A program made the position numbers and the translations under genes. Below the pieces are notes generated by a model. That model was not told where the DNA came from. It worked only from the letters and a program-made list of their open reading frames with translations, and searched no databases. Below are positions 25,817 through 49,792 of a stretch of 64,000 bases of DNA, one piece after another. The stretch lies in sequence record NC_014792.1; one strand, written 5' to 3'. Origin of the DNA: Escherichia phage vB_EcoM_VR7. The stretch's first letter is position 1. The number at the start of each line of letters is the position of its first letter.

Positions 25817-26103
25817 TTGCGGAATGAAATGAAACCTGCTACAGTCATTACAGCTTCTTTCTTAACAAAGACTGTAATCGCAATTGGTGCTTCAGATTCA
25901 AGCTGTCCAGTTACTATACCATTAAAAATATTTTCTGTTTGTTCAGAATTTACAAAGTTTTCAACAGGGCGAAGGTCGAATTTCTTATCTTCACCAAATA
26001 CACGTCGTAATTCATTACCCACTGCGCTGTCAAACTCTTCTGAAGCTGGGATAACATTCTCAACTACCAGTTCCTGACCATTAAAGCGAAAAGATGATTT
26101 CAT
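25813..26103 (-). CDS. Hypothetical protein (alt.-x position)
   Basis: 96 aa from internal ATG with GAGGA SD; early-type promoter (GTTTAC, 18 nt, TACAAT) upstream. Confidence 0.45.
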   Translation of the reverse strand: MKSSFRFNGQELVVENVIPASEEFDSAVGNELRRVFGEDKKFDLRPVENFVNSEQTENIFNGIVTGQLESEAPIAITVFVKKEAVMTVAGFISFRK

Positions 26104-26132
26104 TTTGTTTTCCTCATGTGCAATTGATATGA

Positions 26133-26166
26133 ACATTGTATCGCACTTCCTTGTGCTTGTAAACCC
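26133..26166 (-). promoter_or_regulatory. Early-type promoter for the 25813..26103 ORF
   Basis: Minus strand reads GTTTAC, 18 nt, TACAAT. Confidence 0.5.
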
Positions 26167-26167
26167 C

Positions 26168-28219
26168 CTATGAAAGGAATTTAGGAGGAATACTTTCCAA
26201 ATTAATACAACTAGCAAGAATACCAAGGCCTTGGTTGACTTTCTTCGTCACCCTGGAGGATGCAAACGATGCGAAGTCAACAGATTCTTCTGGTTCCTCG
26301 CCTTTATAAACGACAAGCTCGCCAGTTTCCATCAACACATCACCATCATAGATAACTGCATTTTCATCCAGTTGGTCAGTGGTCTGAATGTCAGGTTCCA
26401 GCATTTTGACGTTCGCATTTCCTTGATACGACGCATCCGTAATTTTTGTAATCTTAACTATAGTTCCACGAGGAAGAATAACTTCTTGCTCGGTCGGGTT
26501 TCCTGACAATTCACCAGGAACAATTACGTTAATTAAGTCCGCTCCAGAAATTTTCCAACCGACATGCATCATTACGTGGTCGCGGCGGGCATCCGGCATA
26601 TCTGGTAAAACAATTTCGTCATCAGCCTGGAAAGATGTCCCATCACGATAGTCCTGATGAACTGCGGCCATAGCAACGTTCGCCACCCAGCCACCAAAGA
26701 TAATCGGTTTAAACGACGTTGATACATAGTTCCTGAAATAAAATAATTTAGATTTCTTAATTTTATCAAATGTAGGAACGTTTAAATATTGACCACGCCA
26801 AAGAGTTGTATTAGGCGGCAACTTATGTCCAATTTCAAAGGCCGAATCCAATTCCTTAATTGTTTCGACAACTCTGTCTAGATTTAGGAATTCAGCTTCT
26901 TCTTCATAATATTTGCCCATCAAATAATTATTAATATCGGCATAGTTTGCTCCACAATAATCTGCAATTGCTTCTCGCTGGCCATAATGGAAACGGTTGT
27001 CAGTATACCCTGCTGTGAAATTAAGAGTATTTTCTGATGCTTCTTCGGCAAAGTCTTTAACTGCAACACGAATGGCGCTTGTGTATTCTTTTTCCCAGAG
27101 CGAGGCTGCATAAGTGGCTGCATCTAGGTTAGGAGGAGCATCATTCATTTTTCTTTCGATAAATGCGGCTTTGCGAAGGTTAAGAATCTCTGCGCATGAT
27201 TCGGCAAAAATCTGCATCTGCTTCATGCTACCAACTGGGGCACGTTTAAGTTCACGATGCATACGGTTAAAAATTGGGTCAGAGTCTTCAACACGAATTT
27301 CTTCTTTCCAAACACCATTTGCGCGCATAGCCGTATCCGCGGCGCGCATACGAGCCATAGTATTCGTTTCGGAAGGTCGAACAAAAATTTCCAGTTCTTC
27401 GGCATCATCAATTAATTCAGCAGTTGCAGGTCGACTAAACTTAGCAGCTTCTGCATCAATTTCGTCCCAACCTTCTGGCACGGAATCACTTGGTGCGTAC
27501 TGGGCTTGTGCAATAGCTCGGCGACTGATTTTAGTTTTCTGGGCAACAGCAGCGTCGGTCTTTTTGTTTGCTGCGTCAATCAGAACTTCGGCTGCGATTT
27601 CTTGTTTGGAGACTTGCGCACCGTTATCTTTATTAGTGAATACGTCGCCAACTTTTGTTGTGACTTTTTGATATTTCTCAGGGACAGGTGGCATACCATC
27701 AACCGACAGCAGGTCAACGCCCTTTTTGTACATAATTACATAAGCGTTCTTTTTACCGAGACCAGAAGCATTCGGAAGAACATGATAACGCCCGGAAGTT
27801 TTCATTTGAATCAGTCGATTCATAATACGAATAACAGCTTGCTCTTGACCTTTCATCTTTTTGGAAGGGAAACGGAACAAGACTACATCAGGTTTGCCTA
27901 GTTTGATACTTTCCCAGACTGTGGTAAAAATCAGGTTAATCGCATCAAGAGGTTTTTCACCTAGGCCACCCTTCAGAGGAACAGCATGGCCGTGTGAAGT
28001 CCCAGAGAGCAGGAATACCTCGGCAATTGCATCACCACGTTTATATTGTTTAACAGTTTCTTTGCCCGTGAATTGCATTAAACGGGCCATAAGAGAATTG
28101 GTCCCAGGAACACCGAATTGCCAAACCTGCGGGACCTTGTATTTTGGATTCATATTAATGACAGGATAACCGAAGGCTTCGATATATTTGTCAAAGAGTT
28201 CATTTAATTGTTCAGACAT
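26168..28219 (-). CDS. alt: Alt-like ADP-ribosyltransferase (virion-packaged in T4)
   Basis: 683 aa, same size and position (between 54 and 30) as T4 Alt; minus-strand late promoter directly upstream. Confidence 0.65.
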   Translation of the reverse strand: MSEQLNELFDKYIEAFGYPVINMNPKYKVPQVWQFGVPGTNSLMARLMQFTGKETVKQYKRGDAIAEVFLLSGTSHGHAVPLKGGLGEKPLDAINLIFTTVWESIKLGKPDVVLFRFPSKKMKGQEQAVIRIMNRLIQMKTSGRYHVLPNASGLGKKNAYVIMYKKGVDLLSVDGMPPVPEKYQKVTTKVGDVFTNKDNGAQVSKQEIAAEVLIDAANKKTDAAVAQKTKISRRAIAQAQYAPSDSVPEGWDEIDAEAAKFSRPATAELIDDAEELEIFVRPSETNTMARMRAADTAMRANGVWKEEIRVEDSDPIFNRMHRELKRAPVGSMKQMQIFAESCAEILNLRKAAFIERKMNDAPPNLDAATYAASLWEKEYTSAIRVAVKDFAEEASENTLNFTAGYTDNRFHYGQREAIADYCGANYADINNYLMGKYYEEEAEFLNLDRVVETIKELDSAFEIGHKLPPNTTLWRGQYLNVPTFDKIKKSKLFYFRNYVSTSFKPIIFGGWVANVAMAAVHQDYRDGTSFQADDEIVLPDMPDARRDHVMMHVGWKISGADLINVIVPGELSGNPTEQEVILPRGTIVKITKITDASYQGNANVKMLEPDIQTTDQLDENAVIYDGDVLMETGELVVYKGEEPEESVDFASFASSRVTKKVNQGLGILASCINLESIPPKFLS

Positions 28220-28242
28220 AATAGGTTCCTTATAAAATATGA

Positions 28243-28280
28243 TGTATTTATACTAAAAAAGGGCCGAAGCCCTTTTGTTA
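28243..28280 (-). promoter_or_regulatory. Ligase terminator hairpin followed by a late promoter for alt
   Basis: gggcc-gaag-ccc hairpin with T-run, then minus-strand TATAAATA ~25 nt before the alt ATG. Confidence 0.6.
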
Positions 28281-29820: not shown

Positions 29821-30099
29821 TTAGTCGTTGGCTCTATTATATGCCACGTCTTCCAAAAGCAAATCCAGACGCTTATGATAAGTGAACACAAATTTCGTGG
29901 CACCGTCTGGTTTCATTTTAGTCATGAAGTGAACATAAATGAATCCTTGCTCAACACATTCACGCCAAACGGGATTATCTTTAGCCGGATTAATATCAAA
30001 CGAGTAATCATGATTCACATGACGAATAAACTGGTTAACATGACCATAATCCATCGTGGTGGTTGGACCACGGTCAGAAATAGTATGAACGACAAACAT
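29821..30099 (-). CDS. Hypothetical protein (30.1 position)
   Basis: 92 aa from internal ATG adjacent to the stop of the upstream gene. Confidence 0.4.
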   Translation of the reverse strand: MFVVHTISDRGPTTTMDYGHVNQFIRHVNHDYSFDINPAKDNPVWRECVEQGFIYVHFMTKMKPDGATKFVFTYHKRLDLLLEDVAYNRAND

Positions 30100-30100
30100 A

Positions 30101-30913
30101 TTAACCCCTTCCACAGGTCGGTTGATTATACCAGTATTCAATACCAGTACCTACGCCATATTGGTATGGATATGCTGGATTATATCCAGGAGTCCATGGC
30201 TGACCTGGCTGCCAGCCTTGTTGCATTTGTTGCTGAAGACGTCGAGTTTCACGAAACAGTTCTTCCAGTTTACGGAGTTCATCTGGTGTGAATTCTGGTT
30301 TGGTCGGTTCATCTTTGTGTTTCAGTTTAAGCTGTCCAGCAACATCGTCCCAATTAAAAACTTTGGAAGCTGTTTTAGGAATAGCATCACGTTCACCACG
30401 AGCCATCCAATAAACCGGAACTGCAAGGATTTCACTCGCATGGTCGCAATGGTGAGCAAGGTCATCAATATAACAAATGACATTATATTTGTCTTTTGCC
30501 TTCTGGAACAACTCCTCTTTAGAGGCTGTATGACCACACATCATAACTTCTTTAAACGCACCAGGGAACAAAGCATTCAGGTTGAATTGACGATTCAGGC
30601 GGGCGTCAATGGAATCACCCAGGGCTGTAACGGCCACAAAATCATATTGTTCTTTGAGGTTATTAATAACCCTTAACGCATCTGCATAAGGAGACAAATA
30701 ACGAATAAAATCCGAACAGTTATATTTCTCAATCAACTGTGCGCCCAACTCTTCATCACAATTGAACAGTTTGCCCGGGGTCACAAATTTTTCATCCTGA
30801 ATCATCTTAAGGATATGTTCCAGGGGTAAATTGTATTTTTGAGCGAAATAAGGCAAGCCAGATTGCCATGACAAACATACGCCATCAATGTCTGTTAAAA
30901 TAACGGGTTTCAT
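30101..30913 (-). CDS. HAD-like hydrolase-fold protein (30.2 position) with Q/P/Y-rich low-complexity C-terminal tail
   Basis: N-terminal ILTDIDGV motif (HAD motif I, DxDG); C-terminus QQQMQQGWQPGQPWTPGYNPAYPYQYG. Confidence 0.55.
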   Translation of the reverse strand: MKPVILTDIDGVCLSWQSGLPYFAQKYNLPLEHILKMIQDEKFVTPGKLFNCDEELGAQLIEKYNCSDFIRYLSPYADALRVINNLKEQYDFVAVTALGDSIDARLNRQFNLNALFPGAFKEVMMCGHTASKEELFQKAKDKYNVICYIDDLAHHCDHASEILAVPVYWMARGERDAIPKTASKVFNWDDVAGQLKLKHKDEPTKPEFTPDELRKLEELFRETRRLQQQMQQGWQPGQPWTPGYNPAYPYQYGVGTGIEYWYNQPTCGRG

Positions 30914-31377
30914 AATGCATCTCTCAATTGGTTAAGTATGTCAATAAATTCTTGTTCAGTCAATATTGTATCATGAACAGTAAGGTGGCTCGCCATCGAA
31001 TGCTTTAAAACTTTGCCCTTTGTAGCTTGTAATGCGTCGCGGAATCCTTTGTTTTGGAGAGCTGCTTCAAAATATGCACTTGTATACAACTCTTTCCATG
31101 CTGCAGAGTATCTTGAAAAGGGAATTCCAAGCCAGAAAAGCGTCCCACGGTCCGCAGCTCTTGCATAAGCTCTTCCAGTTTGTTGTGCGACCAGCCCGGA
31201 CATCCCAAATATACGTTTTTGTTGTTCATAATTTCTCACCTTGCACCCTTGTAGGAAGCCTTCAAGACCTCCAAACTGGATACCATCCATAACAAAAGGC
31301 CATTTGGCAAAGTTACTTAATGCGCATGATGGCCACGGGAAATTGCTTCTGATTTCTAACTCAGACATCTTTGACAC
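30910..31377 (-). CDS. NADAR/YbiA-like domain protein (30.3 position)
   Basis: 155 aa with SNFPWP...FWLGIPFSRYS-type motifs that resemble the NADAR (DUF1768) family; position matches T4 30.3. Confidence 0.55.
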   Translation of the reverse strand: MSKMSELEIRSNFPWPSCALSNFAKWPFVMDGIQFGGLEGFLQGCKVRNYEQQKRIFGMSGLVAQQTGRAYARAADRGTLFWLGIPFSRYSAAWKELYTSAYFEAALQNKGFRDALQATKGKVLKHSMASHLTVHDTILTEQEFIDILNQLRDAL

Positions 31378-31573
31378 TTATAATTTCGACATCAGCCCAA
31401 TGGCCATAACCCGGTAGACGGTCCGCAATGGATAATCCGCCGTCAGTTTTGAGCATTTTAATTGTCTTAGTATATGGTTCAATATTTCGGGCCCATGGAC
31501 TTACGTCAGTCACGCGATAAGTCACTTCAACCATTTCTGTGCCCAAAATTTTCTGAATCAATTTCTTAAACAT
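31361..31573 (-). CDS. Hypothetical protein (70 aa)
   Basis: ORF in the minus-strand operon; no motif. Confidence 0.35.
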   Translation of the reverse strand: MFKKLIQKILGTEMVEVTYRVTDVSPWARNIEPYTKTIKMLKTDGGLSIADRLPGYGHWADVEIISVKDV

Positions 31574-31574
31574 A

Positions 31575-31769
31575 TTATCCTCGCTTTAAACATTTGATTA
31601 CAGACAATTCTTGCCCCATGCGGACGTCTTCAGTTCCATCAACCCACAGGACTGCATAGGCTTCTTTAATGGAAATATTACTCAATTTGAAAGCAGGCAG
31701 GACCTTGGAAATCATTCCAGGAATACCCACACCTTTTAACTGAACAGTTTGTGATAAGAATAGTTGCAT
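31575..31769 (-). CDS. Hypothetical protein (64 aa)
   Basis: ORF in the minus-strand operon; tightly packed. Confidence 0.35.
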   Translation of the reverse strand: MQLFLSQTVQLKGVGIPGMISKVLPAFKLSNISIKEAYAVLWVDGTEDVRMGQELSVIKCLKRG

Positions 31770-32086
31770 TAGAACCTCATCTGGAAACCATGTGATTTGA
31801 CATTCTTGCCATTAATATCAGATGAATTAATTTCACGTGCCGCGATTGGGTCAATATCAATGTCACGACTAAGCTTGGTGATTGCCAGAGTATCGCGCCC
31901 ATTAACAGTCCTGAATTCAACTGGGCAAACTATATCCACATAGTTTTTAATGGATTCTTTAGTTGGTTGCTTATCAGCAGGTACACCTGGACCAGCTTTG
32001 GAGAAAACAACTTCACAGAAATTTTTACGTGTATCAAAGTAAGTAGTCATAAACATAGTATTTTCCTCAAGGGGCTTTCGCCCCAT
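31769..32086 (-). CDS. Hypothetical protein (105 aa)
   Basis: ORF in the minus-strand operon. Confidence 0.4.
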   Translation of the reverse strand: MGRKPLEENTMFMTTYFDTRKNFCEVVFSKAGPGVPADKQPTKESIKNYVDIVCPVEFRTVNGRDTLAITKLSRDIDIDPIAAREINSSDINGKNVKSHGFQMRF

Positions 32087-32092
32087 TTAAGA

Positions 32093-32458
32093 TTAGATAT
32101 CAAATTCATTAAGAACTACATCAAAGATTGCTTCCAGGTGTTCAGGTTTTGCTTTGTTGCTCAGAATATGGCGAATCCAAGTTTTAACCAACAGCTTGCG
32201 ATTAACACCATTCCAGCAAGGATGAGTACCTAAATCACGTTCGCGGAAATCATCATCTAAAGCAATTTTAAAGTTAGAACCAGTCATAGTGATTGAAAGA
32301 GTGATACCATTTTCAAATCGCATATAAACGTAGTTGGGAGTCATATACTGTTCAATTTCACACACTGAACCATTTTTATGTTTCCATAAACAAATAACTT
32401 CAGAAGAACCTGGGATACAGTTAGAAACATATTTGCGTTCAAAGTTGATGTAGTTCAT
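32093..32458 (-). CDS. Hypothetical protein (121 aa)
   Basis: GGAG SD; early promoter with hairpin upstream. Confidence 0.45.
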   Translation of the reverse strand: MNYINFERKYVSNCIPGSSEVICLWKHKNGSVCEIEQYMTPNYVYMRFENGITLSITMTGSNFKIALDDDFRERDLGTHPCWNGVNRKLLVKTWIRHILSNKAKPEHLEAIFDVVLNEFDI

Positions 32459-32481
32459 TTTATTCTCCAGTTGTTTTCATT

Positions 32482-32527
32482 TGTTGGTACAGGTCTATAA
32501 TATCATAACCTGTACCAAAGTAAACTG
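32482..32527 (-). promoter_or_regulatory. Early promoter embedded in a stem-loop (PeSL-like)
   Basis: Inverted repeat ttggtacaggt / acctgtaccaa around a TATAAT-like hexamer; GTTTAC on the minus strand. Confidence 0.5.
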
Positions 32528-32529
32528 TT

Positions 32530-32898
32530 TTATGCGACTTTAATCCAATTATCTAAATTTAATTCACCCTTAGCTTTCATTTTTTCAATCAGATTATCTG
32601 CAGTGGTGCGACCATTTTGATACCAGGTTACATCTTCAGAATAACCAGTTTCTTCATCTTCATAGGTCTTACAACGAATCTTACCAAGAATTAAAGTTTT
32701 CAGTTCGTAGGTATCACCAGTAAAAAAGTTTGTTACCATAATTTTCCAGGAGAAGTCATCAGAAGGACCTTCTGGAGTCATGCAAGAAACGAATTCAAAT
32801 TGTTCTTTATACAAGTGCCATTGCATTTCTTTAGTTTCAATGGCTTTGTAACCGTCGTGGTCTTTACCTTTGATGTATGAGTTAAGATTGATTTTCAT
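32530..32898 (-). CDS. Hypothetical protein (122 aa)
   Basis: GGAG SD; early promoter (GTTTAC, 18 nt, CATAAT) upstream; 5' leader nearly identical to that of 32093..32458. Confidence 0.45.
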   Translation of the reverse strand: MKINLNSYIKGKDHDGYKAIETKEMQWHLYKEQFEFVSCMTPEGPSDDFSWKIMVTNFFTGDTYELKTLILGKIRCKTYEDEETGYSEDVTWYQNGRTTADNLIEKMKAKGELNLDNWIKVA

Positions 32899-33014
32899 TT
32901 TATTCTCCAGTGTTTTATTGTGTAACTCAGTATGGAATCATTATGCACTGGACCAACCCTGTTGTAAACCCCTTTATGGAAAATAAAAAAAGGGACTCCG
33001 AAGAGTCCCTGAAC

Positions 33015-33176
33015 TTATGCTTTCGGCTTACCAAAGCAAGCTGCATCGGCACGCAATACCGCACGAGCACGAGCCTGAAGTTTATCAGTTACCTGATTGA
33101 TTCGCTTGTTGGACGCACGCTTGTAACCAGCGCGTTTGGAGGAGCCATCAACAACTTTAACTTCTTTCTTAGCCAT
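33015..33176 (-). CDS. Small basic protein (53 aa)
   Basis: Manually translated: MAKKEVKVVDGSSKRAGYKRASNKRINQVTDKLQARARAVLRADAACFGKPKA; followed on the minus strand by a hairpin plus T-run terminator; weak SD. Confidence 0.3.
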   Translation of the reverse strand: MAKKEVKVVDGSSKRAGYKRASNKRINQVTDKLQARARAVLRADAACFGKPKA

Positions 33177-33472
33177 ATTAAATTCTCTTTAAAATAGAAT
33201 GCAGGACTTATTGACATTGCCTGCGCAAGCCCTCGAAGGGAACATTAGGTTTCGGATATTTAACGACAGGATAACCATAAACCTCGTCATCATACCAACC
33301 ACGACTTAGACAGATAACCTTTTTCTGACGCGGGGTAGTACAAAATACATTCAAGAGGTACACCACAAAATTATCGGGGTCTAAAACTATAATGATTCGC
33401 AAATCATTAATCAGATAATTCGGTGGCTCCTCGATTTTCTAGCCGCACTTAAGGTAGCGAATCACCTACAGC

Positions 33473-33727
33473 TTACTTCAGGGTTACGACAAAATGGCGA
33501 ACAGCTTTGCGCGCAGCAGATGCCAGCGGCTTAGCAAATTTCAGTTCATCTTTTGCTTCGAGCACTGCGCGAAGGTCGGTTTGAATCGGGTTAAGATGTT
33601 TGAAATACTGCAGAATTTCCAGTGCTTCGGCTTCAACATCAATAGATGCGCCGTAGTTTTCGTGACCGTTATTCCATGCAGTGCGTTGCAGTTCGAGAGC
33701 GTGTTGTAATTGTTTGTTTAAAGACAT
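33473..33727 (-). CDS. rIII: rIII-like protein (lysis inhibition accessory)
   Basis: 84 aa from internal ATG with GAGG SD; same size and position (next to gene 31) as T4 rIII; the ORF-track start at 33862 would sit at the late-promoter start site. Confidence 0.6.
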   Translation of the reverse strand: MSLNKQLQHALELQRTAWNNGHENYGASIDVEAEALEILQYFKHLNPIQTDLRAVLEAKDELKFAKPLASAARKAVRHFVVTLK

Positions 33728-33865
33728 TTTAGAAGCCTCAATATGAGGTGAATATTTGGTGGACACGTTCTTCTGAATTTCACTTCCTTTCGGCAAGTCT
33801 CTCAGTTGTAGTCCACCGTTTAGGATTCTCCGGGTAACTAACTGGTCCGGCAGCCAATCCATATT

Positions 33866-33877
33866 ATTATTTATAAC
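33866..33877 (-). promoter_or_regulatory. Late promoter between gene 31 and rIII
   Basis: Minus-strand TATAAATA just downstream of the gene 31 stop. Confidence 0.55.
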
Positions 33878-33884
33878 GCTAATT

Positions 33885-34232
33885 TTACTTATAAAGACAA
33901 GGAACAGCTTTATAATGACAGGTCACAAATTTCTGCTTAACTTCTTTAGCCTGCTTAAGTCCCAGAGCAACCAGAGGATGTGGAACGTTTGCAATCTTGC
34001 CAACCGGAAGAGGAGTCAAATCACCTACTTCACAGAAGCCTTCAGGAACATCTGGACCAATCGAAAATACTTCACACATCTCTGGGATTTCACCCTGATG
34101 GAGTTTTCCGATAACAATACCTGATGCCGTAGTTTCTTCATCGCCAGCTTGCTTTGGCTCAGAAACCAAAATAATATATTCACCTACTGCTTTAATTGGT
34201 AATTCCATATTTAATCCATGTTGTTTGGTCAT
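33885..34232 (-). CDS. 31: Co-chaperonin gp31 (GroES-like)
   Basis: [22 protein letters not shown]...[50 protein letters not shown], near-identical to T4 gp31; exact start (MTKQ... or MELP...) unresolved. Confidence 0.93.
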
Positions 34233-34263
34233 GTATTAATAATAACACGCGTTGTTTGAAGCA

Positions 34264-34563
34264 TTAAAGGACGAGCAGAGTCTCGGTCTGTAATCCATTC
34301 ACAGAAATCAATTTATTGAAACAGAATGAACGCCACTCATTAAGCTTGGTATCAAATACCCTGATATAGCTAACCGGTTCTTTACTAGCTTCTGGGCCAG
34401 GGGCCTGGATTTCTTTATACGGCAACAGGTCCAGGTCGCGAGTGCAAGTCATACGACGGATACTTCCATCTGCTTTTTCAAACAGAACTTCGTGAAAACC
34501 AACAGACAAGATAGTCTTGACTTTTTCACGGAGGCGAATTGTTTCTTGTTCAGTTAAAATCAT
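34264..34563 (-). CDS. Hypothetical protein (99 aa)
   Basis: ORF in operon. Confidence 0.4.
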   Translation of the reverse strand: MILTEQETIRLREKVKTILSVGFHEVLFEKADGSIRRMTCTRDLDLLPYKEIQAPGPEASKEPVSYIRVFDTKLNEWRSFCFNKLISVNGLQTETLLVL

Positions 34564-34565
34564 AA

Positions 34566-35949: not shown

Positions 35950-36491
35950 CAGATTGTCTCCTGTTTTACTTGTTTAACGATAGAAGCTTTTGTTATATCG
36001 CCTTTGATAATATAACAATCTTCTGCAGTACCACGGTTTAACAGGCGCTCTGCTTCGTCTTCCGCATATTCTTTTGACACATGACGAGAGTTAATCTCAA
36101 TCTTGCCATTTTTAACCACAAGCAATTTCCAAACTGATGCAAGTTTTACTGGCACAGGTTCAACTTCTGGCTTAACACCAACTTCCGCCTGGATGAAATA
36201 ATCAAATTCATCAGACAATGGACCAGCAGAAACAAACAGCGCACCATGATGCCTGTTCTGTGTGCTAGATATTTTTGCCAAATCCACAAAATCATTTTCA
36301 TCAATCAAACGAATCTCACAAACTTTTCTTCCACCGCTGATGGTATCAGGTACAATTTTCACTTCAAACGGAGTCATACCGATGTATCCAGCAATTTGGT
36401 AATTAGCTGCCCAGCCTCCGGCAATAAATTGTTTTTTGGCATTTTCAGACGTGAACTTGTAAAACTTACCTTCTTCAAAGAAATCACTCAT
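35949..36491 (-). CDS. Hypothetical protein (180 aa)
   Basis: GAGGA SD; consensus early promoter (GTTTAC, 17 nt, TATAAT) upstream. Confidence 0.45.
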   Translation of the reverse strand: MSDFFEEGKFYKFTSENAKKQFIAGGWAANYQIAGYIGMTPFEVKIVPDTISGGRKVCEIRLIDENDFVDLAKISSTQNRHHGALFVSAGPLSDEFDYFIQAEVGVKPEVEPVPVKLASVWKLLVVKNGKIEINSRHVSKEYAEDEAERLLNRGTAEDCYIIKGDITKASIVKQVKQETI

Positions 36492-36518
36492 TTTGTTTTC
36501 CTCATGTGTTGATGAAAT

Positions 36519-36551
36519 TCATTATACACCATCCATGGTGAAAGTAAACAC
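36519..36551 (-). promoter_or_regulatory. Consensus early promoter for the 35949..36491 ORF
   Basis: Minus strand reads GTTTAC, 17 nt, TATAAT; leader cacatgaggaaaacaaaATG is also found upstream of the 25813..26103 ORF. Confidence 0.6.
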
Positions 36552-36557
36552 TTTAAA

Positions 36558-36836: not shown

Positions 36837-36881
36837 TTCTTTTCTCGCTTAGTTATTGGGGTTATCCAAAGGACCTAGACC

Positions 36882-37370: not shown

Positions 37371-37373
37371 ACA

Positions 37374-39213
<1,840 letters not shown>

Positions 39214-39217
<4 letters not shown>

Positions 39218-39696
39218 ACACCAAGCTCCTTATAAAGTTCTTCGCGACAAGTTTTCAGAATTTTACCAGTTTCATAAGCTGTGCTTTCAGAAACATCACC
39301 AAGTGCAGCGGCAGCTTGCATTTGGCCATGGCGTTTAGCAGCATATTCAAAACTTTTTACTAGCTCACGAATACGTTCTTTTTCATTGTATTCTTCAATA
39401 AATTCTGGATATTCCCAAACAGGTCGCATCATACGATACCACAGTTGGATGGTAATATAATTACTTCCATCCAGATTAATAATTTGTGAAGGCTTAATAG
39501 CGCCAGGAGCATAAAAAGTTACCTGTCTTACTACATCAATACCATCCACAATAGCCCAAGCAAAATCGAAGGTGGCCTTCTTTTCAATTGGCGTGCTCGC
39601 ACAAGACCCTAACTTTAAGAGCTTTTGTAATACAGGAGATTTAACTCCTGAAATGTACACAGGATTAGCTACAAAGCTGTTATCACGTAATGACAT
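39214..39696 (-). CDS. Hypothetical protein (~160 aa from internal ATG)
   Basis: ORF-track start 39750 is a TTG; first ATG gives MSLRDNSF... Confidence 0.4.
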
Positions 39697-39761
39697 AATA
39701 GTTTCCTCAAATATTTTATAATCCGTAGGAGCATTATACTCTGCTCCCAAGAGTTTGTAAA

Positions 39762-39869
39762 CTACTTACCAAAAAGACCATCAATACACATGCTGAATAC
39801 AATTCCAAAACAAAAGCATGCAAAACCCAATCTAAAAACATCCCAGCCATCGATACAGGCTTCAATCAT
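39762..39869 (-). CDS. Putative small hydrophobic membrane peptide (35 aa)
   Basis: Manually translated: MIEACIDGWDVFRLGFACFCFGIVFSMCIDGLFGK; strong GAGGAG SD ~7 nt upstream; start overlaps the last codons of the o-spanin gene. Confidence 0.3.
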   Translation of the reverse strand: MIEACIDGWDVFRLGFACFCFGIVFSMCIDGLFGK

Positions 39870-40999: not shown

Positions 41000-41009
41000 A
41001 ATATTTTCC

Positions 41010-41276
41010 TCAATAGCGGTTATAACCTCTAGGACCAAAAGAGTTTGCACCCAGGCGCTCATCTTTCTTTTTGGCTCTTGCTCTAAACCCAGAATCACCT
41101 GTTTGGTCTTTCAGTTCTTTTAACAATTTGGCCTTCAGGTCAGTAATGAAACCAATCCGGCGGTCTCCCTTGTAGACATAGATTCCATCATTTCTGTCAC
41201 CATATGCCTTTGTAACTCTGTCATTTGAAATTAAGTTTAACATGTTTTGGTCCTCATCAGTAGTTGATGGAACCAT
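41010..41276 (-). CDS. Truncated paralog of the Alc-like N-terminal domain (88 aa)
   Basis: LISNDRVTKAYGDRNDGIYVYKGDRRIGFITDLKAKL aligns with LISNEMIVDVYGDRHDGIYVYKGSKNVGFLTDLRKKL of the downstream gene. Confidence 0.4.
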   Translation of the reverse strand: MVPSTTDEDQNMLNLISNDRVTKAYGDRNDGIYVYKGDRRIGFITDLKAKLLKELKDQTGDSGFRARAKKKDERLGANSFGPRGYNRY

Positions 41277-41287
41277 TATGTATAGAA

Positions 41288-41316
41288 AGAAGGGGCTTGT
41301 ACACCCCTTTTTTATT
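41288..41316. terminator. Hairpin plus T-run terminator downstream of rnlA
   Basis: gggg-cttgtaca-cccc flanked by T-runs on both strands. Confidence 0.6.
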
Positions 41317-42451
41317 ATTCAGGCAGGATTACATCCGCTTGGTAGTCCGCTGGGATGTAAAGTTTATGATTTTTAAGGAAAACATTATTGATTTGAGCGA
41401 TGGTTTGCTCTGTTTCCTGGGGACGTTGATACGTGTTCATTAATACGGAGAACAAACCCGGATATGGTTTACACAGTTCTTGACCTTTAATCGCAAACTC
41501 GCGTCGGTCTTTTCCTGCCAACTGTTTCTGGGCATCAAGCAACAGTCCCAGGGTATTGGACAGATAATCCAGATGGGTCAAAGTAAAGGCATTAACTTTT
41601 TCACGAGCATAATCATCGCCAGTAAACATGGCAATAACATCATCTGCACCGCCTGCGACAACAACTTCAAAAAGACGCTGGTTATTGTTAACAGAATCCT
41701 TTGTATGGTGTAAAGCACAATACCATTCTGTCTTAACTTTAAATTTGCGACCATCGACCAGCTCATAGACAAAGCCTTCAATCTCTTTCATATCACGGAC
41801 GTTTTCAATTGTAGCCGGGTCATATGCTTCAACCAGGAATGGGCGAAGCGCGGCATCTTTAAACAAATCCCGATAAGGGATATATTCACCAGTTTCATTA
41901 TGGCGAACGTTCAGTAAAATCAGGTCACGTTCCTGGTAAGGCAAAACAATGCGGTTGGTTGGCGCAACATATTCCATATTGCATGTATAACCAGCTTCAG
42001 TAATTTCAGTTACACGCTCACGGAAAGCTATACGGTGTTCTTGTTTGAATACCTGCAGGGCTTCTGCTGCCTGGGAGCTTTTGATTGACCCTTTGGATTT
42101 AAAAGCAATATTGGTCTGGTCCATATAAGTGGAGACAAGAGAGCCATCAGCCTTGGTCATGACCAGCGCAACTTCATCCATATTGATATCCATGGTCAAC
42201 GGATTTTCGCCCAAGTTAAAGAACTTTTCCATAGGACGAGCCGCAATACGAACTGGACCATCTGCATCCATTTCAAACATAATGCCACGGCACTCTAATG
42301 CATCATCAAGGAGCCAATCACTATAGGAAGCATAGTTATAGCTAAAGATGCGGAACTTAGTTTCAAATGGAGAAACGAAATCAGTATAGAAAAACTTACC
42401 TTTTTCAGATTCAGCGCACAGCTTCATTAAGTTGTCATATAATTCAATCAT
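41315..42451 (-). CDS. rnlA: RNA ligase 1
   Basis: Strong similarity to T4 gp63 (FRIFSYNYASYSDWLL.DALECRGIMFEMD...PVRIA.RPMEKFFNL.ENP, KADGSLVSTY, GKDRK). Confidence 0.95.
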   Translation of the reverse strand: MIELYDNLMKLCAESEKGKFFYTDFVSPFETKFRIFSYNYASYSDWLLDDALECRGIMFEMDADGPVRIAARPMEKFFNLGENPLTMDINMDEVALVMTKADGSLVSTYMDQTNIAFKSKGSIKSSQAAEALQVFKQEHRIAFRERVTEITEAGYTCNMEYVAPTNRIVLPYQERDLILLNVRHNETGEYIPYRDLFKDAALRPFLVEAYDPATIENVRDMKEIEGFVYELVDGRKFKVKTEWYCALHHTKDSVNNNQRLFEVVVAGGADDVIAMFTGDDYAREKVNAFTLTHLDYLSNTLGLLLDAQKQLAGKDRREFAIKGQELCKPYPGLFSVLMNTYQRPQETEQTIAQINNVFLKNHKLYIPADYQADVILPE

Positions 42452-42864
42452 TTCTTCACCTTATGTTGGTAGTTCCACGGGGGATTAAAAAGCTTTATGA
42501 ACATCGGCTCTTCCAGAGACATAGTTTCGACTGACATCGTACCAAGTTCATTGGTCATTGATAGATTGAAACATTGTCGTGCATAGAATACCACCTTTTG
42601 ACCTGCATGTAAAGCTTCATGTATCATCCGGGATTTGTTTGAATCACTCGTTTGTTCTATACGATTGATTGCAGTCCGGTAATAATTGATTCGCTTCTTC
42701 AGGTTGTTCGTCTTACCAATATACACTAGTTCATCGTCAACTGAAATAGCGTAGATAACATTTTTCTTGTTCGCGAGTGTAAGGGTAGGGATTTTACCAT
42801 CGACTAACTCTAACTCCGCATATTTTATAAAACTGTATTCGTCAGCGATTTGTTTCATAGACAA
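42448..42864 (-). CDS. denA: Endonuclease II (GIY-YIG family)
   Basis: Near-identical to T4 DenA (EYSFIKY.ELEL, NVIYAI...DELVYIGKT.NL.KRINYYRTAINR, VFYARQCFNLSMTNELGTM, FIKLFNPPWN). Confidence 0.92.
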   Translation of the reverse strand: MSMKQIADEYSFIKYAELELVDGKIPTLTLANKKNVIYAISVDDELVYIGKTNNLKKRINYYRTAINRIEQTSDSNKSRMIHEALHAGQKVVFYARQCFNLSMTNELGTMSVETMSLEEPMFIKLFNPPWNYQHKVKK

Positions 42865-42886
42865 AAAGGGCCGAAGCCCTTTCCTT
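42862..42886. terminator. Terminator hairpin between nrdB and denA
   Basis: gggcc-gaag-ccc with flanking A/T runs. Confidence 0.65.
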
Positions 42887-44063
42887 ATAGATATTTACGG
42901 AAACCAGCAAGAACATTCTCATCGACGTCATTGTCAATCTGGGCTACCAGGTAAGCGGACAACTCAACTTCTTGTGGCGCAGATTGCACATTATCAGAAT
43001 TGAGATATTCGCGAATCCATGGAATCGGGTGCTTAGTAGATTCTAACACGATTTCACAAGGGAGACCGCATTGCTTCATACGAGAAACTGTCAGGTAATC
43101 GATGAACCGGTTAAGAATCTCGACGCTCAGCCCGGGGAGTCCACCATCTTTAAACAGATGCACAGCCCATTCTTTTTCCTGACGATTGACTTCCATGAAA
43201 ATAGCTGCGGCTTCTGCTTCACATTCGTGAGCAATTTTAACCCATTCGTCACCGTCAACACCAGTCTGCAGCTGACGAAGAATATATTGGGTTCCCTTAA
43301 GGTGGAGCTGCTCATCACGTGCGATGAACTTCATTATCTTCGCATTGCCTTCCATGATTTCCATGTTCTTATGGAAGTTGAAAGTACAAGCAAAAGATAC
43401 ATAAAAACGAATTGCTTCCAGGGCGTTAATGACATGCAGGCAGAGATAAAGAGATTTCATCAATGCTCGTTTGGCAATAGCTTCTTGTTTGATAGCTCGT
43501 TCCAAACGTTGGTCCACTTCGGGAGTTTCTTTGGCCAGTTCAACAAAAGCAATCTGGTTTTGCCATTGACGAGTTTTATTCAGAACATCATCATAGTAAT
43601 AGCCAATTGATTCGGCTCGCTTCATGATTGCATCATCTAACAGGATTTCGTCGAATACCTTCGCCGGGTCTGTATAGAGATTTCGCATGATGTGTGTATA
43701 AGAACGAGAGTGAATTGTCTCGCTGAATGTCCAGGTCTGAATCCATGTATCAAGACTCGGGTCAGAAACTAATGCGGCTAATGCTGCAGCCGGAGCACGA
43801 CCCTGGATACTGTCCAGAAGTGATTGGTACTTCAGGTTATTGGTAAAAATATTTTGTTGATGTTCAGGAAGCTTATTAAATTGAGCTCCGTCCATCATCA
43901 GGTTTACTTCCTCGGGCCGCCAGAAGAATGACAATTGCTTTTCTGTTAATTCTTCAAAAACTTTATGACGCTGGATATCATAACGGGCGATGCCCAATCC
44001 TGAACCAAAAAACATCGGCTCGGCTAAAACATCCACCGGAGTGGTATTAAAAACTGTACTCAT
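42885..44063 (-). CDS. nrdB: Ribonucleotide reductase small subunit
   Basis: 392 aa, class Ia R2 fold; position as T4 nrdB; uninterrupted (no intron). Confidence 0.93.
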   Translation of the reverse strand: MSTVFNTTPVDVLAEPMFFGSGLGIARYDIQRHKVFEELTEKQLSFFWRPEEVNLMMDGAQFNKLPEHQQNIFTNNLKYQSLLDSIQGRAPAAALAALVSDPSLDTWIQTWTFSETIHSRSYTHIMRNLYTDPAKVFDEILLDDAIMKRAESIGYYYDDVLNKTRQWQNQIAFVELAKETPEVDQRLERAIKQEAIAKRALMKSLYLCLHVINALEAIRFYVSFACTFNFHKNMEIMEGNAKIMKFIARDEQLHLKGTQYILRQLQTGVDGDEWVKIAHECEAEAAAIFMEVNRQEKEWAVHLFKDGGLPGLSVEILNRFIDYLTVSRMKQCGLPCEIVLESTKHPIPWIREYLNSDNVQSAPQEVELSAYLVAQIDNDVDENVLAGFRKYL

Positions 44064-44101
44064 TTTATTTCCTCAATAGCTCATCCATGAGCATAATTAT
44101 A

Positions 44102-46357
44102 TCAAAGTTTACAAGCGGAGCAGTCTTCTGCTTTAGGAGCTTCGATTTCGTAATCGTCTGTTCCGGAACCGTCTCTAGTGTTATGATAATAAAGGTTTTT
44201 TCCACCAAAATACCAGAAGTACATCAAGTCGTCAAGCATAACTGACATCGGAACTTTTCCTTTCGGAAAAATCTGTGGGTCATAGTATGTGTTTGCTGAA
44301 GCTGATTGACATACCCATTTCAACATAATAGCTACCATCGTAAGATAAGGTTTATTACCTTTCTTAGCTAGCACCCATGCATAATCGTACAATCCTTTAT
44401 TGTGCTCAATATTGGGCACGACTTGATTAAAGGAACCCTCTTTTGACTCTTTAATAGAGACTGGTCCACGCGGAGGTTCGATACCGTTTGTACTGTTAGA
44501 AACTTGGGAAGATGACTCACAAGGCATAAGTGCTGATAATGTGCTATTACGGATGCCATATGCAACCAGGTCTTCCCGCAACTGCGCCCAGTCACAAACG
44601 TAGTTTGGAGCTGCGATTTGGTCAATCTTTTTATTGTACCAGTCGATAGGTAATTCGCCTCGAGCCCAACGAGTGTCTGAATAATATTCGCAAGGTCCTT
44701 TTTCTTTGGCGAGCTTGATTGATGCTCGGATAAGGCCATATTGTAATCTCTCAAATAATTCATGGGTTAAATCGTTTGCATCAGCGTAAGAAGCGAAATT
44801 GCTTGCCAGCCATGCAGCATAGTTAGTAACCCCAACACCCAGGTTACGGCGTTTTTTGGCTTTCAGAGCTTCTTTAACCGGATAACCTTGGTAGTCCAAC
44901 AGGTTATCAAGAGCACGAACTTGAACTTCAGCCAGCTCGTTAATCTTGTCTTGGTCCTGCCAGTCAAAACTATCCAGAACAAATGCAGACAATGTGCACA
45001 ATCCGATTTCAGCGTCTTCACTGTTTACATCAGTAGTCGGGATTGCAATTTCACAACATAAATTCGATTGACGAATCGGAGCCTTATCGCGGATGAACGG
45101 AGTATAGTCATTCACATTATCAACGAACTGCGGATAAACTCGGGCAGTGCCGGAACGTTCGGTCATGAATAATTCGAACAGGTCTTTTGCTTTGATGCGC
45201 TTCTTACGAACTGTCGGGTCTTTTTCCAAGGCTTCGTATAACTCACGGAATTTATCCGGGTTATCAAAATATGAATAATACAATTCACCACCGGCTTCGT
45301 GTGGACTAAACAGAGTGATGTAATCATTCTTAGCCAGTCGTTCCATCATCAGGTTATTCAACTGAACACCATAGTCCATATGTCTGATGCGGTTTTCTTC
45401 AACGCCCTTGTTGTTCTTCAGAACGAGTAAATTTTCAACTTCCAAATGCCATAAAGGATAATAAGCAGTAGCAGCGCCGCCACGGATTCCACCTTGTGAA
45501 CAGGATTTAACAGCCGTTTGGAAATGTTTCCAGAACGGAATAACACCAGTATGCTTGACTTCACCCATACCGATTTTCGAACCTTCAGCACGAATCATGC
45601 CAACGTTGATACCGATACCCGCCCGCTTACTGATATATTCGATGATTGAATTGGCGGTCTTATTGATTGACTTCAGGGAGTCAGCAGCTTCGATAACCAC
45701 ACAGGAACTGAACTGCCGGGTAGGTGTTCTGGCGCCCGCCATGATAGGTGTGGGCAACGAAACCTGTCTTGTGGATACTGCATCATAAAAACGGCAAACG
45801 TGCTTCAGACGGTCCGTTGGTTCATCCTGGTGCAGTGCCATGCCGATAGCCATGATAGCGAATTGCGGAGTCTCGTAGATTTTACCGGTGGTTTTATCTT
45901 TAACCAGGTATTTCTCTTTCAACTGCATCGCGCCTGCATAAGTCAGGTCAAAATCACGTTCGTGTTTGATACGAGATTCCAGATAAGTAATCTCTTCGGC
46001 GGAGTAGCTTGACAACAGTTCCGGGTCATATTTGCCTTCATTGACACAATAAGAAATCTGGTCAATAAAAGAACGTGGCTCGAACTGACCATAGACATCT
46101 TTACGCAGAGCAAACATCGTAGCTTTGGCCGCAACATATTGGTAATCTGGTTCTTCAACCGAGATAAGTCCAGCAGACACTTTGATGATAACCGTCTGAA
46201 TATCGCGAGTAGTCATACCATCGCGCAGATGTGGTTTGATTGTTTCGTATAATTCATACGGGTCGATATTAGTTCCTTCACATGACCAGGAAAGAACTTT
46301 AATAATTTTCTGGCCATCAAAATCTTGAGATACGCCACTACTTTTTTGTACTTGCAT
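44102..46357 (-). CDS. nrdA: Ribonucleotide reductase large subunit
   Basis: 751 aa; conserved RNR catalytic motifs (e.g. NLCCEI); position as T4 nrdA. Confidence 0.95.
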   Translation of the reverse strand: MQVQKSSGVSQDFDGQKIIKVLSWSCEGTNIDPYELYETIKPHLRDGMTTRDIQTVIIKVSAGLISVEEPDYQYVAAKATMFALRKDVYGQFEPRSFIDQISYCVNEGKYDPELLSSYSAEEITYLESRIKHERDFDLTYAGAMQLKEKYLVKDKTTGKIYETPQFAIMAIGMALHQDEPTDRLKHVCRFYDAVSTRQVSLPTPIMAGARTPTRQFSSCVVIEAADSLKSINKTANSIIEYISKRAGIGINVGMIRAEGSKIGMGEVKHTGVIPFWKHFQTAVKSCSQGGIRGGAATAYYPLWHLEVENLLVLKNNKGVEENRIRHMDYGVQLNNLMMERLAKNDYITLFSPHEAGGELYYSYFDNPDKFRELYEALEKDPTVRKKRIKAKDLFELFMTERSGTARVYPQFVDNVNDYTPFIRDKAPIRQSNLCCEIAIPTTDVNSEDAEIGLCTLSAFVLDSFDWQDQDKINELAEVQVRALDNLLDYQGYPVKEALKAKKRRNLGVGVTNYAAWLASNFASYADANDLTHELFERLQYGLIRASIKLAKEKGPCEYYSDTRWARGELPIDWYNKKIDQIAAPNYVCDWAQLREDLVAYGIRNSTLSALMPCESSSQVSNSTNGIEPPRGPVSIKESKEGSFNQVVPNIEHNKGLYDYAWVLAKKGNKPYLTMVAIMLKWVCQSASANTYYDPQIFPKGKVPMSVMLDDLMYFWYFGGKNLYYHNTRDGSGTDDYEIEAPKAEDCSACKL

Positions 46358-46377
46358 GTTTTCCTCTGTTATAAAAT

Positions 46378-46430
46378 GGGGTCATGCTTATACTAACACA
46401 TGACCCCTGGAGCGGAATCGTATTTATAGA
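46378..46430 (-). promoter_or_regulatory. 9-bp stem hairpin plus a late-promoter-like TATAAATA between td and nrdA
   Basis: ggggtcatg-cttatactaaca-catgacccc; minus-strand TATAAATA at ~46421-46428. Confidence 0.4.
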
Positions 46431-46488
46431 AGGAAGTTAAGTCCGACCATTACGACCAAAAATAAAATGCCAGCAATTTGAATTTTCA

Positions 46489-48147
<1,659 letters not shown>

Positions 48148-48151
<4 letters not shown>

Positions 48152-48486
48152 TTTAATTCCTTAACTGCCTTTTTAATGGCAGTAAAATCTTTGCGAATAT
48201 CGAGAACCAATTTGTAAAGATGTTTAATTGTATCTGTATCAAAATATGATACCGCGCAACGTGATTGGCGAATATCTTCTAATGAATATTTGCTTTCGCT
48301 TGTGCCATATCCAATGATACCACTAATGCACTTGTCATTAAGCGTATACTTCTGGGGGACATCAATAATATTTTTAGGATAGATGTAAAGGCTCCAATCA
48401 AATTTTTGTTCAAGCGTATTAACCTTAACTTCAAGAACCAGTTCAGGATGCGCATCATCTTTAGCAAAACAAGTGTATTCAACAAG
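48148..48486 (-). CDS. Hypothetical protein (~113 aa from internal ATG)
   Basis: ORF-track 48148..48726 overlaps the neighbouring ORF in another frame, so an internal start is assumed. Confidence 0.3.
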
Positions 48487-48499
48487 CATTATATTTTCC

Positions 48500-48739
48500 T
48501 CACGCTTTCTTAGCGATTTTCCAGTCAGCTTTAAATTGGTCAACATCAGAGTGGTGAATCCAGAAACCAGATGAGCTACCATCTTCATAAAGAGGACAAC
48601 CATCACACTCATCTTTCCAACCCATTGCACACAAAGTTTCTTCTGCTTTTTCCAGAGCTTCTGGATTGTTACCTTGGATTGTGAAGTACCATTTGCCTTT
48701 AACTTCTGAATCTTTGATGCTCTCACGTTTTAATTTCAT
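48500..48739 (-). CDS. Hypothetical protein (79 aa)
   Basis: ORF; early promoter and hairpin upstream. Confidence 0.35.
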   Translation of the reverse strand: MKLKRESIKDSEVKGKWYFTIQGNNPEALEKAEETLCAMGWKDECDGCPLYEDGSSSGFWIHHSDVDQFKADWKIAKKA

Positions 48740-48798
48740 TTTATTCTCCTCAAGTTGGTAAGGCTATAGTATCACTACCATAGCCCTGTTGTAAACAT

Positions 48799-49026
48799 TT
48801 ATTTTTGAATTAAGCCCATATAAAATTCAGCATCTTCAACATGCATACCATCACAATACTCGTCAGTCATAAAACGAGTCAGGTCTTCAAGAGGGCCTTG
48901 AACTTCAATTTGGATACTAAAGAATTGAGTATCTTTTATGTAAGTCATACTCAAAGAAGGATAACGATTACGGATAACTTCGTAAGTGTATTCAAAATCA
49001 ACAATATCAATATTAACTTTAGCCAT
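48799..49026 (-). CDS. Hypothetical protein (75 aa)
   Basis: ORF; early promoter and hairpin upstream. Confidence 0.4.
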
Positions 49027-49090
49027 TTTATTTTCCTCATGTAGTTGATAGGTCTATAGTATCTCAACCATAGACAGTGTACACTACTTT

Positions 49091-49357
49091 TTAAATTTTA
49101 TCAAGCCATTTGCCAAGTTTAGTCATTTCTTTAGTAGCTTTTTCTAGACTTCTGAACTTGACTAACAAAGGATAAGTATCTACACCCATAACTAAAGTGG
49201 TTACAAGACTATGCTCGCCTACAAGCCATAGAGAATACGTTTGAACATCAAGTCCGTAATTTCGGTCTTTATGAACACGTACACCCATCACTTCAAACTG
49301 TTCGCTGGCTTTTTCTACTGCATCCAGGAAATCATCTTTAGTCATATTAAATTCCAA
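49091..49357 (-). CDS. Hypothetical protein (88 aa)
   Basis: ORF. Confidence 0.4.
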   Translation of the reverse strand: MEFNMTKDDFLDAVEKASEQFEVMGVRVHKDRNYGLDVQTYSLWLVGEHSLVTTLVMGVDTYPLLVKFRSLEKATKEMTKLGKWLDKI

Positions 49358-49718
49358 AGGTAGCTTTAATCAAGGCAATGACTTCCGCTGCATTTTTGTG
49401 ATTAACCTGCACATGAATGGTTTGCGTGTCAACAACAGGAGCTGGAGCTTCATCCACTTCTAAGAAGTATTGGAATTCACCTTCAGCGAGCTCGAAATAG
49501 TATTCACCTTTCATGTCCATGGAAGTAAAGATTGTCCCGTCTTTCATTTCAATCATTTCAACAAAATACTCACCATAATAGCATCCCATATCCAGAACTT
49601 TAAAGGTGTCACCACACTCTGCCATCCGCTTAACCATAAGTGCATTATCATCTGGACAGTCAGCGATGAAACGTTTTTTAGCAGCGGGGTCTAATACGTA
49701 AGTTTTACCAGTTTCCAT
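49347..49718 (-). CDS. Hypothetical protein (123 aa)
   Basis: ORF; early promoter and hairpin upstream. Confidence 0.4.
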   Translation of the reverse strand: METGKTYVLDPAAKKRFIADCPDDNALMVKRMAECGDTFKVLDMGCYYGEYFVEMIEMKDGTIFTSMDMKGEYYFELAEGEFQYFLEVDEAPAPVVDTQTIHVQVNHKNAAEVIALIKATFGI

Positions 49719-49792
49719 TTTTATTTCCTCAGTTGTTATCAGCAGTTGATGGAATCATTATGCCTTAGCTCAAGGAGCTTGTACACTACTTT

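Follow-up and report, generated by a model that had tools for sequence, protein, structure and literature searches.

Small early genes in a 64,000-nucleotide (nt) stretch of the Escherichia phage vB_EcoM_VR7 genome (NC_014792.1; this whole stretch is referred to below as the window) are preceded by compact regulatory modules that are probably T4-type early transcription and translation cassettes of the kind described as promoter-early stem-loops (PeSLs). A PeSL consists of an A/T-rich stretch, -35 and -10 boxes, a stem-loop, a Shine-Dalgarno sequence and an ATG, and it lies before small genes of unknown function; its stem-loop is found between or over the boxes, or just upstream of them as a terminator (PMC2839356, PMC4122927). 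One such stem cut downstream reporter expression as strongly as rrnB T1 (PMC2839356). By inspection of the window, every one of these sequence-level defining features is present. The stem lies over the -10 before 30.7, frd.1, frd.3 and the gp239-like gene, over the -35 before the gp243-like gene, and takes the form of an upstream terminator before 30.8 and frd.2. A preliminary description of this DNA had likened several of its promoters to PeSL cassettes, and the architecture bears that out. As read from alignments with relatives, the modules have also been places where small genes were inserted, deleted, swapped and reordered; that they drive such exchange is a separate and weaker proposition, which is weighed below.

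Early promoter modules

At positions 30000-50000 the window shares 97.6% identity with Escherichia phage vB_EcoM_VR25 (Gaprivervirus, Tevenvirinae) and 91-94% with SP18, VR20, VR26 and a set of TH phages; by this measure the window is from a Gaprivervirus, a T4-like coliphage. This 20-kilobase (kb) segment matches more than 1,000 records of T4-like phages from several genera. According to the VR25 annotation, the gene block in the 26-50 kb region comprises alt.-3, alt, 30, 30.1-30.9, rIII, 31, cd, pseT, alc, rnlA, denA, nrdB, nrdA, td, frd and frd.1-3, up to gene 32. All of it from alt.-3 to gene 32 lies on the minus strand, and therefore the plus-strand motifs first reported are reverse complements of the functional orientation. 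The products encoded downstream of the modules are 75-180 amino acids long and belong to the Pfam families DUF5498, Gp30.7, Gp30.8, DUF5417, FRD3 and FRD2, or to no family.

The T4 early consensus has GTTTAC at -36 to -31, and some T4-like phages prefer G at -33 (PMC1524935). A search pattern for T4-early promoters (GT[GT]TAC N16-19 [TC]A[CT][AT]AT) has 10 matches in the 64 kb. In 100 dinucleotide shuffles it averaged 0.69 matches and never exceeded 3, an enrichment that is to be read knowing that the pattern was partly tuned on its own matches. All 10 matches lie on the minus strand with a start codon (ATG) 30-50 nt downstream. They include the four sites originally proposed, which carry a -35 of GTTTAC (30.7 and frd.1) or GTGTAC (frd.3 and frd.2); five others lie within the same span, before the alt.-3, 30.8, gp232-like, gp239-like and gp243-like genes, and one lies outside it, with its promoter at 7462 before a small open reading frame (ORF). 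A generic loose sigma-70 scan of the window, on the other hand, gave no enrichment (61 matches versus 51.7 expected); the gp239-like promoter is the best sigma-70 match, at 11/12. The T4 record names an early promoter, Pe133295, at the orthologous cd.3/cd.2 gap.

The intergenic gaps before these small, non-essential early genes follow a single layout (Table 1). An A/T-rich stretch, sometimes with a terminator first, is followed by a -35 of GT(T/G)TAC, a 17-19 nt spacer, a -10 of TAYWAT or CATAAT, and a 25-35 nt leader that finishes in one of two stereotyped ribosome sites. The A/T-rich tract is present when the module sequences are read directly (aaaaataaat, ttaaaaagta, tttttattttcaaaaagta) and is weaker at alt.-3. 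The two ribosome-site leaders are ATGAGGAAAAyAAAATG (class 1) and GGAGAATAAAATG. The 30.8 and frd.2 modules each have a canonical terminator, set some 20 nt ahead of the -35, and these two hairpins as well as the one over the gp243-like -35 have the G+C-rich stem and U-run of intrinsic (rho-independent) terminators.

An independent repeat search recovered the same elements. It found a 58-nt promoter family (D4, at 7425, 32932, 41267 and 49749), terminator families D9, D12 and D20, and leader families D13 and D6; the last is the shared leader noticed earlier, which proves to be an exact 21-nt repeat (26100-26120 and 36488-36508, 100% identical). A middle-promoter-like module is also present three times on the minus strand (1018-1050, 11176-11208 and 18478-18510), in which a MotA box (TGCTT) precedes GTATAATGGTTCTA by about 12 nt; the stretch past its -10 resembles the CATAATGRTYCCAT early subfamily.

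Table 1. Early promoter modules of the window and their component elements; positions within elements are given in the direction of transcription.
Feature	Position	Strand	Elements
alt.-3 (DUF5498) module	26101..26164	-	-35 GTTTAC 26164-26159; -10 TACAAT 26140-26135; ATG 26103; module conserved in 8 relatives
alt.-3 leader		-	cacATGAGGAAAACAAA, class 1; weak 4-base-pair (bp) inverted repeat only
30.7 module	32456..32525	-	-35 GTTTAC 32525-32520; N17; -10 TATTAT 32502-32497; ATG 32458; leader has GGAGAATAAAATG
30.7 hairpin	32516-32508 / 32494-32486	-	9 bp plus inner pairs around -10; -10 in hairpin loop
30.8 module, terminator and promoter	32896..33010	-	-35 32969-32964; -10 CATAAT 32945-32940; ATG 32898
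30.8 upstream terminator	33010-32991	-	GGGACTCttcgGAGTCCC and T-run
gp232-like module	36489..36549	-	-35 36549-36544; -10 TATAAT 36526-36521; ATG 36491
gp232-like leader and stem	36488-36508 (leader)	-	short stem CACCA/TGGTG; class-1 leader equal to alt.-3 leader over 21 nt
gp239-like module	39694..39762	-	-35 GTTTAC 39762-39757; -10 TATAAT 39738-39733; ATG 39696
gp239-like hairpin	39749-39726	-	GGGAGCA/TGCTCCT; -10 in loop
gp243-like module	41241..41309	-	-35 GTGTAC 41304-41299; -10 CATAAT 41280-41275; ATG 41243
gp243-like terminator-like hairpin	41309-41290	-	GGGG..CCCC; loop holds -35
gp243-like leader hairpin	41275-41248	-	Shine-Dalgarno sequence paired
frd.1 (DUF5417) module	48737..48796	-	-35 GTTTAC 48796-48791; N19; -10 TACTAT 48771-48766; ATG 48739
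frd.1 hairpin and leader	48787-48760 (hairpin)	-	12 bp; -10 in 3' arm; leader GAGGAGAATAAA
frd.3 module	49024..49084	-	-35 GTGTAC 49084-49079; N17; -10 TACTAT 49061-49056; ATG 49026; class-1 leader
frd.3 hairpin	49075-49052	-	9 bp; -10.7 kcal/mol; -10 in 3' arm
frd.2 module, terminator and promoter	49716..49825	-	-35 GTGTAC 49786-49781; N18; -10 CATAAT 49762-49757; ATG 49718
frd.2 terminator	49825-49804	-	G+C-rich stem and U-run
frd.2 small inverted repeat	49779-49767	-	AGCTC/GAGCT, 5 bp
Unit antisense between late genes 23 and 24	7082..7462	-	early promoter 7462-7433; GGAG Shine-Dalgarno sequence; 93-amino-acid ORF, ATG 7396
Terminator of that unit	7107-7082	-	intrinsic terminator

Hairpins at the promoters

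When 60-nt segments beginning at the -35 are folded, the predicted structures are strong at 30.7 (-17.4 kcal/mol, z -3.70), frd.1 (-16.4 kcal/mol, z -3.84) and the gp239-like gene (-13.7 kcal/mol, z -2.55) and modest at frd.3 (-11.3 kcal/mol, z -1.17); the gp243-like value (-14.7 kcal/mol, z -3.07) belongs to the leader hairpin that pairs the Shine-Dalgarno sequence. The T4 30.7, cd.2 and alt.-3/alc modules have analogous stems (z -5.2, -4.8 and -5.4, respectively). An Rfam search found zero families anywhere in the window.

The 30.7 stem (GGTACAGG/CCTGTACC) is the same in 23 of 23 genomes including T4, one of them with a G.U variant, while its loop and leader vary. In TH57, TH54 and TH44 the 90-nt 30.7 module is 99-100% identical to that of the window, and the first 120-150 nt of coding sequence are 82% identical. 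The frd.3 stem is found in 13 of 15 Gaprivervirus-type genomes (-8.8 to -17.6 kcal/mol), with three different solutions for the 5' arm and with one pair that is variously G-C, G.U, A-U and, once, A.C. In IMG/VR, gp30.7 and Frd.3 found just 14 and 8 relatives, respectively, all of them close; such small and uniform sets do not allow formal covariation, and conservation of the stems was judged from pair changes read by hand and from per-genome folds. On this comparison the stems are recurrent, selected features of several promoters, yet not obligatory ones, and three of the four hairpins first named (30.7, frd.1 and frd.3) are kept among relatives, that of 30.7 without change out to T4. The loop of the 30.7 hairpin also reads TATAAT on the plus strand with GTTTTC 17 nt upstream (32473-32501), an antisense promoter-like site directed towards 30.8.

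The sense strands of these segments fold more stably than the antisense strands (-16.4 versus -9.2, -10.7 versus -6.6 and -12.9 versus -9.1 kcal/mol) because of G.U pairs, and this asymmetry in the modelled folds points to an RNA-level structure in the sense transcripts. It bears directly on the idea that the palindromes around the -10 are operators, at which a dimeric phage or host protein would bind duplex DNA and shut off the early promoters. Such operators would fit stems that bracket the -10 and are highly conserved, as is the 30.7 stem, which is invariant from the window to T4. A site in duplex DNA would not, however, need G.U pairs that favour one strand; the stems of the various modules (GGTACAGGT, GGGCTATGGTA, GGGAGCA and GGGAACAT) differ from one another and have no half-site in common, and at frd.3 the 5' arm has been replaced by non-identical sequences with pairing kept. 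The unequal folding of the two strands and the missing common half-site led us to reject operators, which are highly improbable here.

An RNA structure would instead follow from the arrangement of the modules. In about half of them the spacer can pair with the -10 or with the bases that directly follow it, and the promoter therefore lies within the hairpin. Judging from T4 biology, host RNA polymerase should start about 7 nt past the -10, within the 3' arm, so that the full hairpin would exist only in RNA that reads through from upstream. There it might attenuate read-through or mark or stabilize a 3' end; in a single module it might hide the ribosome site. Such an arrangement would insulate each small gene as a unit of expression. 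The -35 regions, -10/leader segments and ribosome sites are nearly identical in different cassettes, and the comparison of relatives shows that exchange has taken place at them.

Masking of the ribosome site is the central element of another explanation, translational discrimination as in the T4 e, soc, 49 and I-TevI genes, where folded read-through RNA hides the ribosome site and translation occurs only from RNA begun at the embedded promoter. The precedent has been described (PMC3014915). Two features agree with it: promoters are placed inside hairpins, such that both arms are found only in upstream-initiated RNA, and the 3' arm takes in the Shine-Dalgarno sequence at the gp243-like leader (41275-41248) as well as in the alt.-3 and alc modules of T4. 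On the other side, the folds predicted for the 30.7, frd.1, frd.3 and gp239-like modules leave the Shine-Dalgarno sequence and the AUG unpaired, and the known precedents are late rather than early promoters. Translational discrimination is therefore an unlikely general role for these stems.

A further proposal takes the leaders into account. The sequence GGAGAATAAAA is present on the minus strand before 30.7 (32467-32477), 30.8 (32907-32917) and frd.1 (48748-48758), and it exactly matches GG*AGRAYARAA, the consensus of strong cleavage sites for RegB, the T4 early-mRNA endoribonuclease (PMC3014915); these are thus predicted cleavage sites. The hairpins that enclose the -10 could then be a selected RNA device, not incidental attenuators: formed only in read-through transcripts, and with the RegB-consensus leader about 20 nt downstream, the stem would make a processing and 3'-stabilizing boundary that insulates every small early gene. 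We regard this as distinctly unlikely. Were it true, selection or gene conversion acting on a boundary element would account for the near-perfect conservation of these elements next to coding flanks of 82% identity. In its most radical variant, a structure-specific nuclease may recognize the stems and start cassette exchange.

Cassette exchange among relatives

Gene content and joints were compared among nine Gapriverviruses and T4. At five of nine modules the cassette edges coincide with insertion/deletion (indel) or replacement breakpoints among the nine relatives. The preliminary description had named unconserved hairpins and cassette boundaries away from indel breakpoints as what would refute it, and neither the hairpins nor the boundaries bear out a refutation. 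The richest set of rearrangements lies just past the gene 32 terminator. The order there is [frd.2b+gp254]-frd.3-frd.1 in the window and VR26, gp188-[frd.2b+gp254]-frd.3-frd.1 in VR25, [frd.2b+gp254]-frd.2a-frd.3-frd.1 in TH57 and TH15, frd.2a-frd.3-[frd.2b(+gp254)]-frd.1 in TH40, TH44, TH22 and TH54, frd.2a-[frd.2b+gp254]-frd.1 in SP18, and frd.3-frd.2-frd.1 in T4. The promoter after the gene 32 terminator is fixed in place, and across relatives three different genes lie behind it. Conversely, frd.1 is driven by two alternative promoter bodies according to its upstream neighbor: 5 relatives have a different body from that of the window, joined at the Shine-Dalgarno sequence, and in pairwise alignments the two promoters converge at GGAGAATAAAATG.

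Other joints can be placed just as closely. In the window the 3' end of gp254 and AAAAAGTAGTGTACA are followed by the frd.3 body, and in TH44 the same sequence is followed by a different body and frd.1; the joint therefore lies directly after the -35. At frd.3 the body and leader are constant and the -35 side goes with the upstream gene. SP18 has no frd.3, and its joint is inside the shared leader ATGAGGAAAwTAAAATG. In TH57 and TH15 a 372-nt insert carrying frd.2a is flanked by a 53-nt repeat that corresponds to window positions 49023-49075, and the gp30.6A insertion of TH57, TH54 and SP18 is flanked by a duplicated terminator (23-nt repeat). The 34-nt frd.2 ribosome site and first codons align to both edges of the gp188 insert of VR25, the right edge of the gp238/239 replacement in TH15 and SP18 falls at 39693-39715, and, with T4 as the reference, the gp232-like gene lies precisely between cd.2 and the conserved promoter-leader of cd.2.

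At frd.2 the module is 94-98% identical, and identity drops to 75-77% once the coding sequence begins. Over its first 150 nt, frd.2 shares 75-77% identity with each of the nine relatives, and the promoter and gene 32 end are 94-99% identical. Among 50,697 phage records, none matches the frd.2+gp254 cassette of the window (49091-49830, minus strand) at more than about 88% along its length.

Do the modules promote exchange?

The same patterns could arise if the modules were passengers. Each early gene needs the same promoter, ribosome site and RegB target, which alone would make the modules similar; recombination through microhomology, homing or pairing of paralogues could occur at every gene boundary, with only boundary events surviving selection, and the cassettes would then show where exchange is tolerated without promoting it. 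This is possible, although we do not favor it. The match of GGAGAATAAAA to the RegB consensus is in keeping with it, since part of the leader identity therefore has a functional explanation. So is the mean identity step, which is 7.3 points at module junctions and 5.8 points at other junctions (p=0.19), both larger than the 3.4 points of intragenic controls (p<0.001); the test for extra mosaicism at promoter junctions was accordingly negative. Harder to explain by passengers are the 53-nt module repeat on both sides of the frd.2a insert, the chimeras in which unrelated genes are joined exactly at the -35 hexamer, and promoter bodies that re-assort independently of both neighboring genes; passengers also fit poorly with the published mini-circle evidence for PeSL-PeSL exchange in RB49/phi1.

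Several observations, that lack of excess mosaicism among them, weigh against reading all of the modules as complete PeSL cassettes active in exchange. Their promoter and terminator activities are predicted from the consensus and from T4 orthology. The alt.-3 promoter has no real stem (z -0.16), the gp232-like stem is weak (z -1.25), and the fold scan finds no stem in the 30.8 and 7462 promoters themselves. The inverted repeat at frd.2, the one of the four reported at the outset that did not hold up, was rejected as a feature, being broken in all nine relatives and scoring z +0.36, as expected of chance. The stems that bracket the -10 at 30.7, frd.1, frd.3 and the gp239-like gene have no U-run and are not canonical intrinsic terminators, and 2 of the 15 genomes have no frd.3 stem, with an unrelated spacer in its place. 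With regard to exchange, the modules make up about 40% of the intergenic DNA and hold about 8 of 21 breakpoints, by a rough, uncomputed tally from coordinates, so that their share of breakpoints does not exceed their share of that DNA. Indels are also found away from early promoters, at 30.3/30.4, upstream of nrdA, at the td 3' end, at gp250 and at gp251/frd.1, and there are further non-promoter events in the duplicated alt of SP18 and the mobE homing endonuclease; some joints lie in the homologous N-terminal codons of frd.2 paralogues. The repeats that flank the non-promoter indels are just 5-18 nt long (8-18 nt at 30.3/30.4, the td 3' end, gp250 and gp251/frd.1), and these indels, like mobE, are events that passengers would predict. 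The modules may raise the rate of exchange, but the comparison does not show them to be hotter than other tolerated sites. The earlier suggestion that they drive the shuffling of small genes thus stands insofar as the cassettes are sites of exchange; the drive itself is unproven.

Three regions of length variation have features of their own. The gap upstream of nrdA (46368-46430, minus strand) has a hairpin (GGGGTCATG..CATGACCCC) and a late-promoter-like box (TATAAATA), and seven relatives carry inserts of 295-622 nt there with nrdA.1/nrdA.2-type genes. The MobE-type homing endonuclease gene (37314-38031, plus strand) overlaps the 3' end of pseT and is missing from VR26, TH15 and TH44; a divergent patch of pseT adjoins it (38178-38412). 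A length polymorphism of 50-100 nt among relatives (33294-33346) lies within the long (about 296 nt) gap between 30.9 and rIII.

Some neighboring genes also merit description. The gp243-like gene (41013-41243, minus strand) encodes a 77-amino-acid paralogue of the Alc N-terminus (Pfam ALC positions 3-62 of 177) and lies immediately upstream of alc with its own terminator/promoter module; the paralogous stretches are 40920-40984 and 41167-41231. Elsewhere in the window there are a fiber-like gene with arrays of collagen-like Gly-X-Y repeats (11888-12763, plus strand) and a tandem duplicate of gene 24 (8567-8764 and 9854-10051, 76% identity over 198 nt).

Comparison with known systems

PeSLs are known for RB49/phi1, T4/PST and KVP40/nt-1, and no description of them in Gaprivervirus was found in the literature searched. 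The present modules would extend the PeSL picture to this additional T4-like genus. They would hold nothing surprising for a specialist, and their value lies in the clean cases that they provide at the nucleotide level: joints at the -35 hexamer and in a shared leader, one promoter with three genes, and one gene with two promoters. Such cases help to explain how small host-takeover genes are reshuffled, and they offer concrete sites at which regulatory motifs may act as recombination linkers.

The RB49/phi1 PeSLs (Arbiol et al. 2010, PMC2839356) have the same composite layout, with stems between the boxes or over the -10 or -35; they too precede small genes whose function is unknown and border indels that distinguish close relatives, and their classic stem form (GGGG..CCCC) is found here at the gp243-like gene. 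They differ in that the -35 is TTGACA there and the T4-early GTTTAC/GTGTAC here, and in that most stems here are A/T-rich rather than polyG/polyC. Mini-circles and function have been reported for RB49/phi1, and the cassettes here are known from sequence alone. The PeSLs of T4/PST and KVP40/nt-1 (Comeau et al. 2014, PMC4122927) are also similar: the T-even consensus TTTACW N17 TAYWAT fits most sites in the window, and their location in hyperplastic regions and association with gene swaps match what is seen here. The T4 orthologues of the 30.7, 30.8, cd.2 and frd.3 promoters have the same or analogous stems. In T4/PST, however, the stems are described as AGNA-loop-TCNT forms placed immediately before the promoter (PMC4122927), whereas the best stems here bracket or include the -10, and the T4 stretch examined showed no CATAATGRTYCCAT subfamily (repeat family D4).

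The T4 e, soc, 49 and I-TevI genes (PMC3014915) share with these modules a promoter placed in an inverted repeat, such that only read-through RNA can fold; those are late promoters whose stems mask the ribosome site, while the promoters here are early and the ribosome site is mostly free. Finally, lambdoid morons and integron cassettes are, like the present units, single genes with their own promoter and terminator, and the 7462-7082 unit is moron-like in this respect. Unlike those systems, the cassettes here are associated with no integrase or attC-type site, and their points of exchange appear to be the regulatory motifs themselves.

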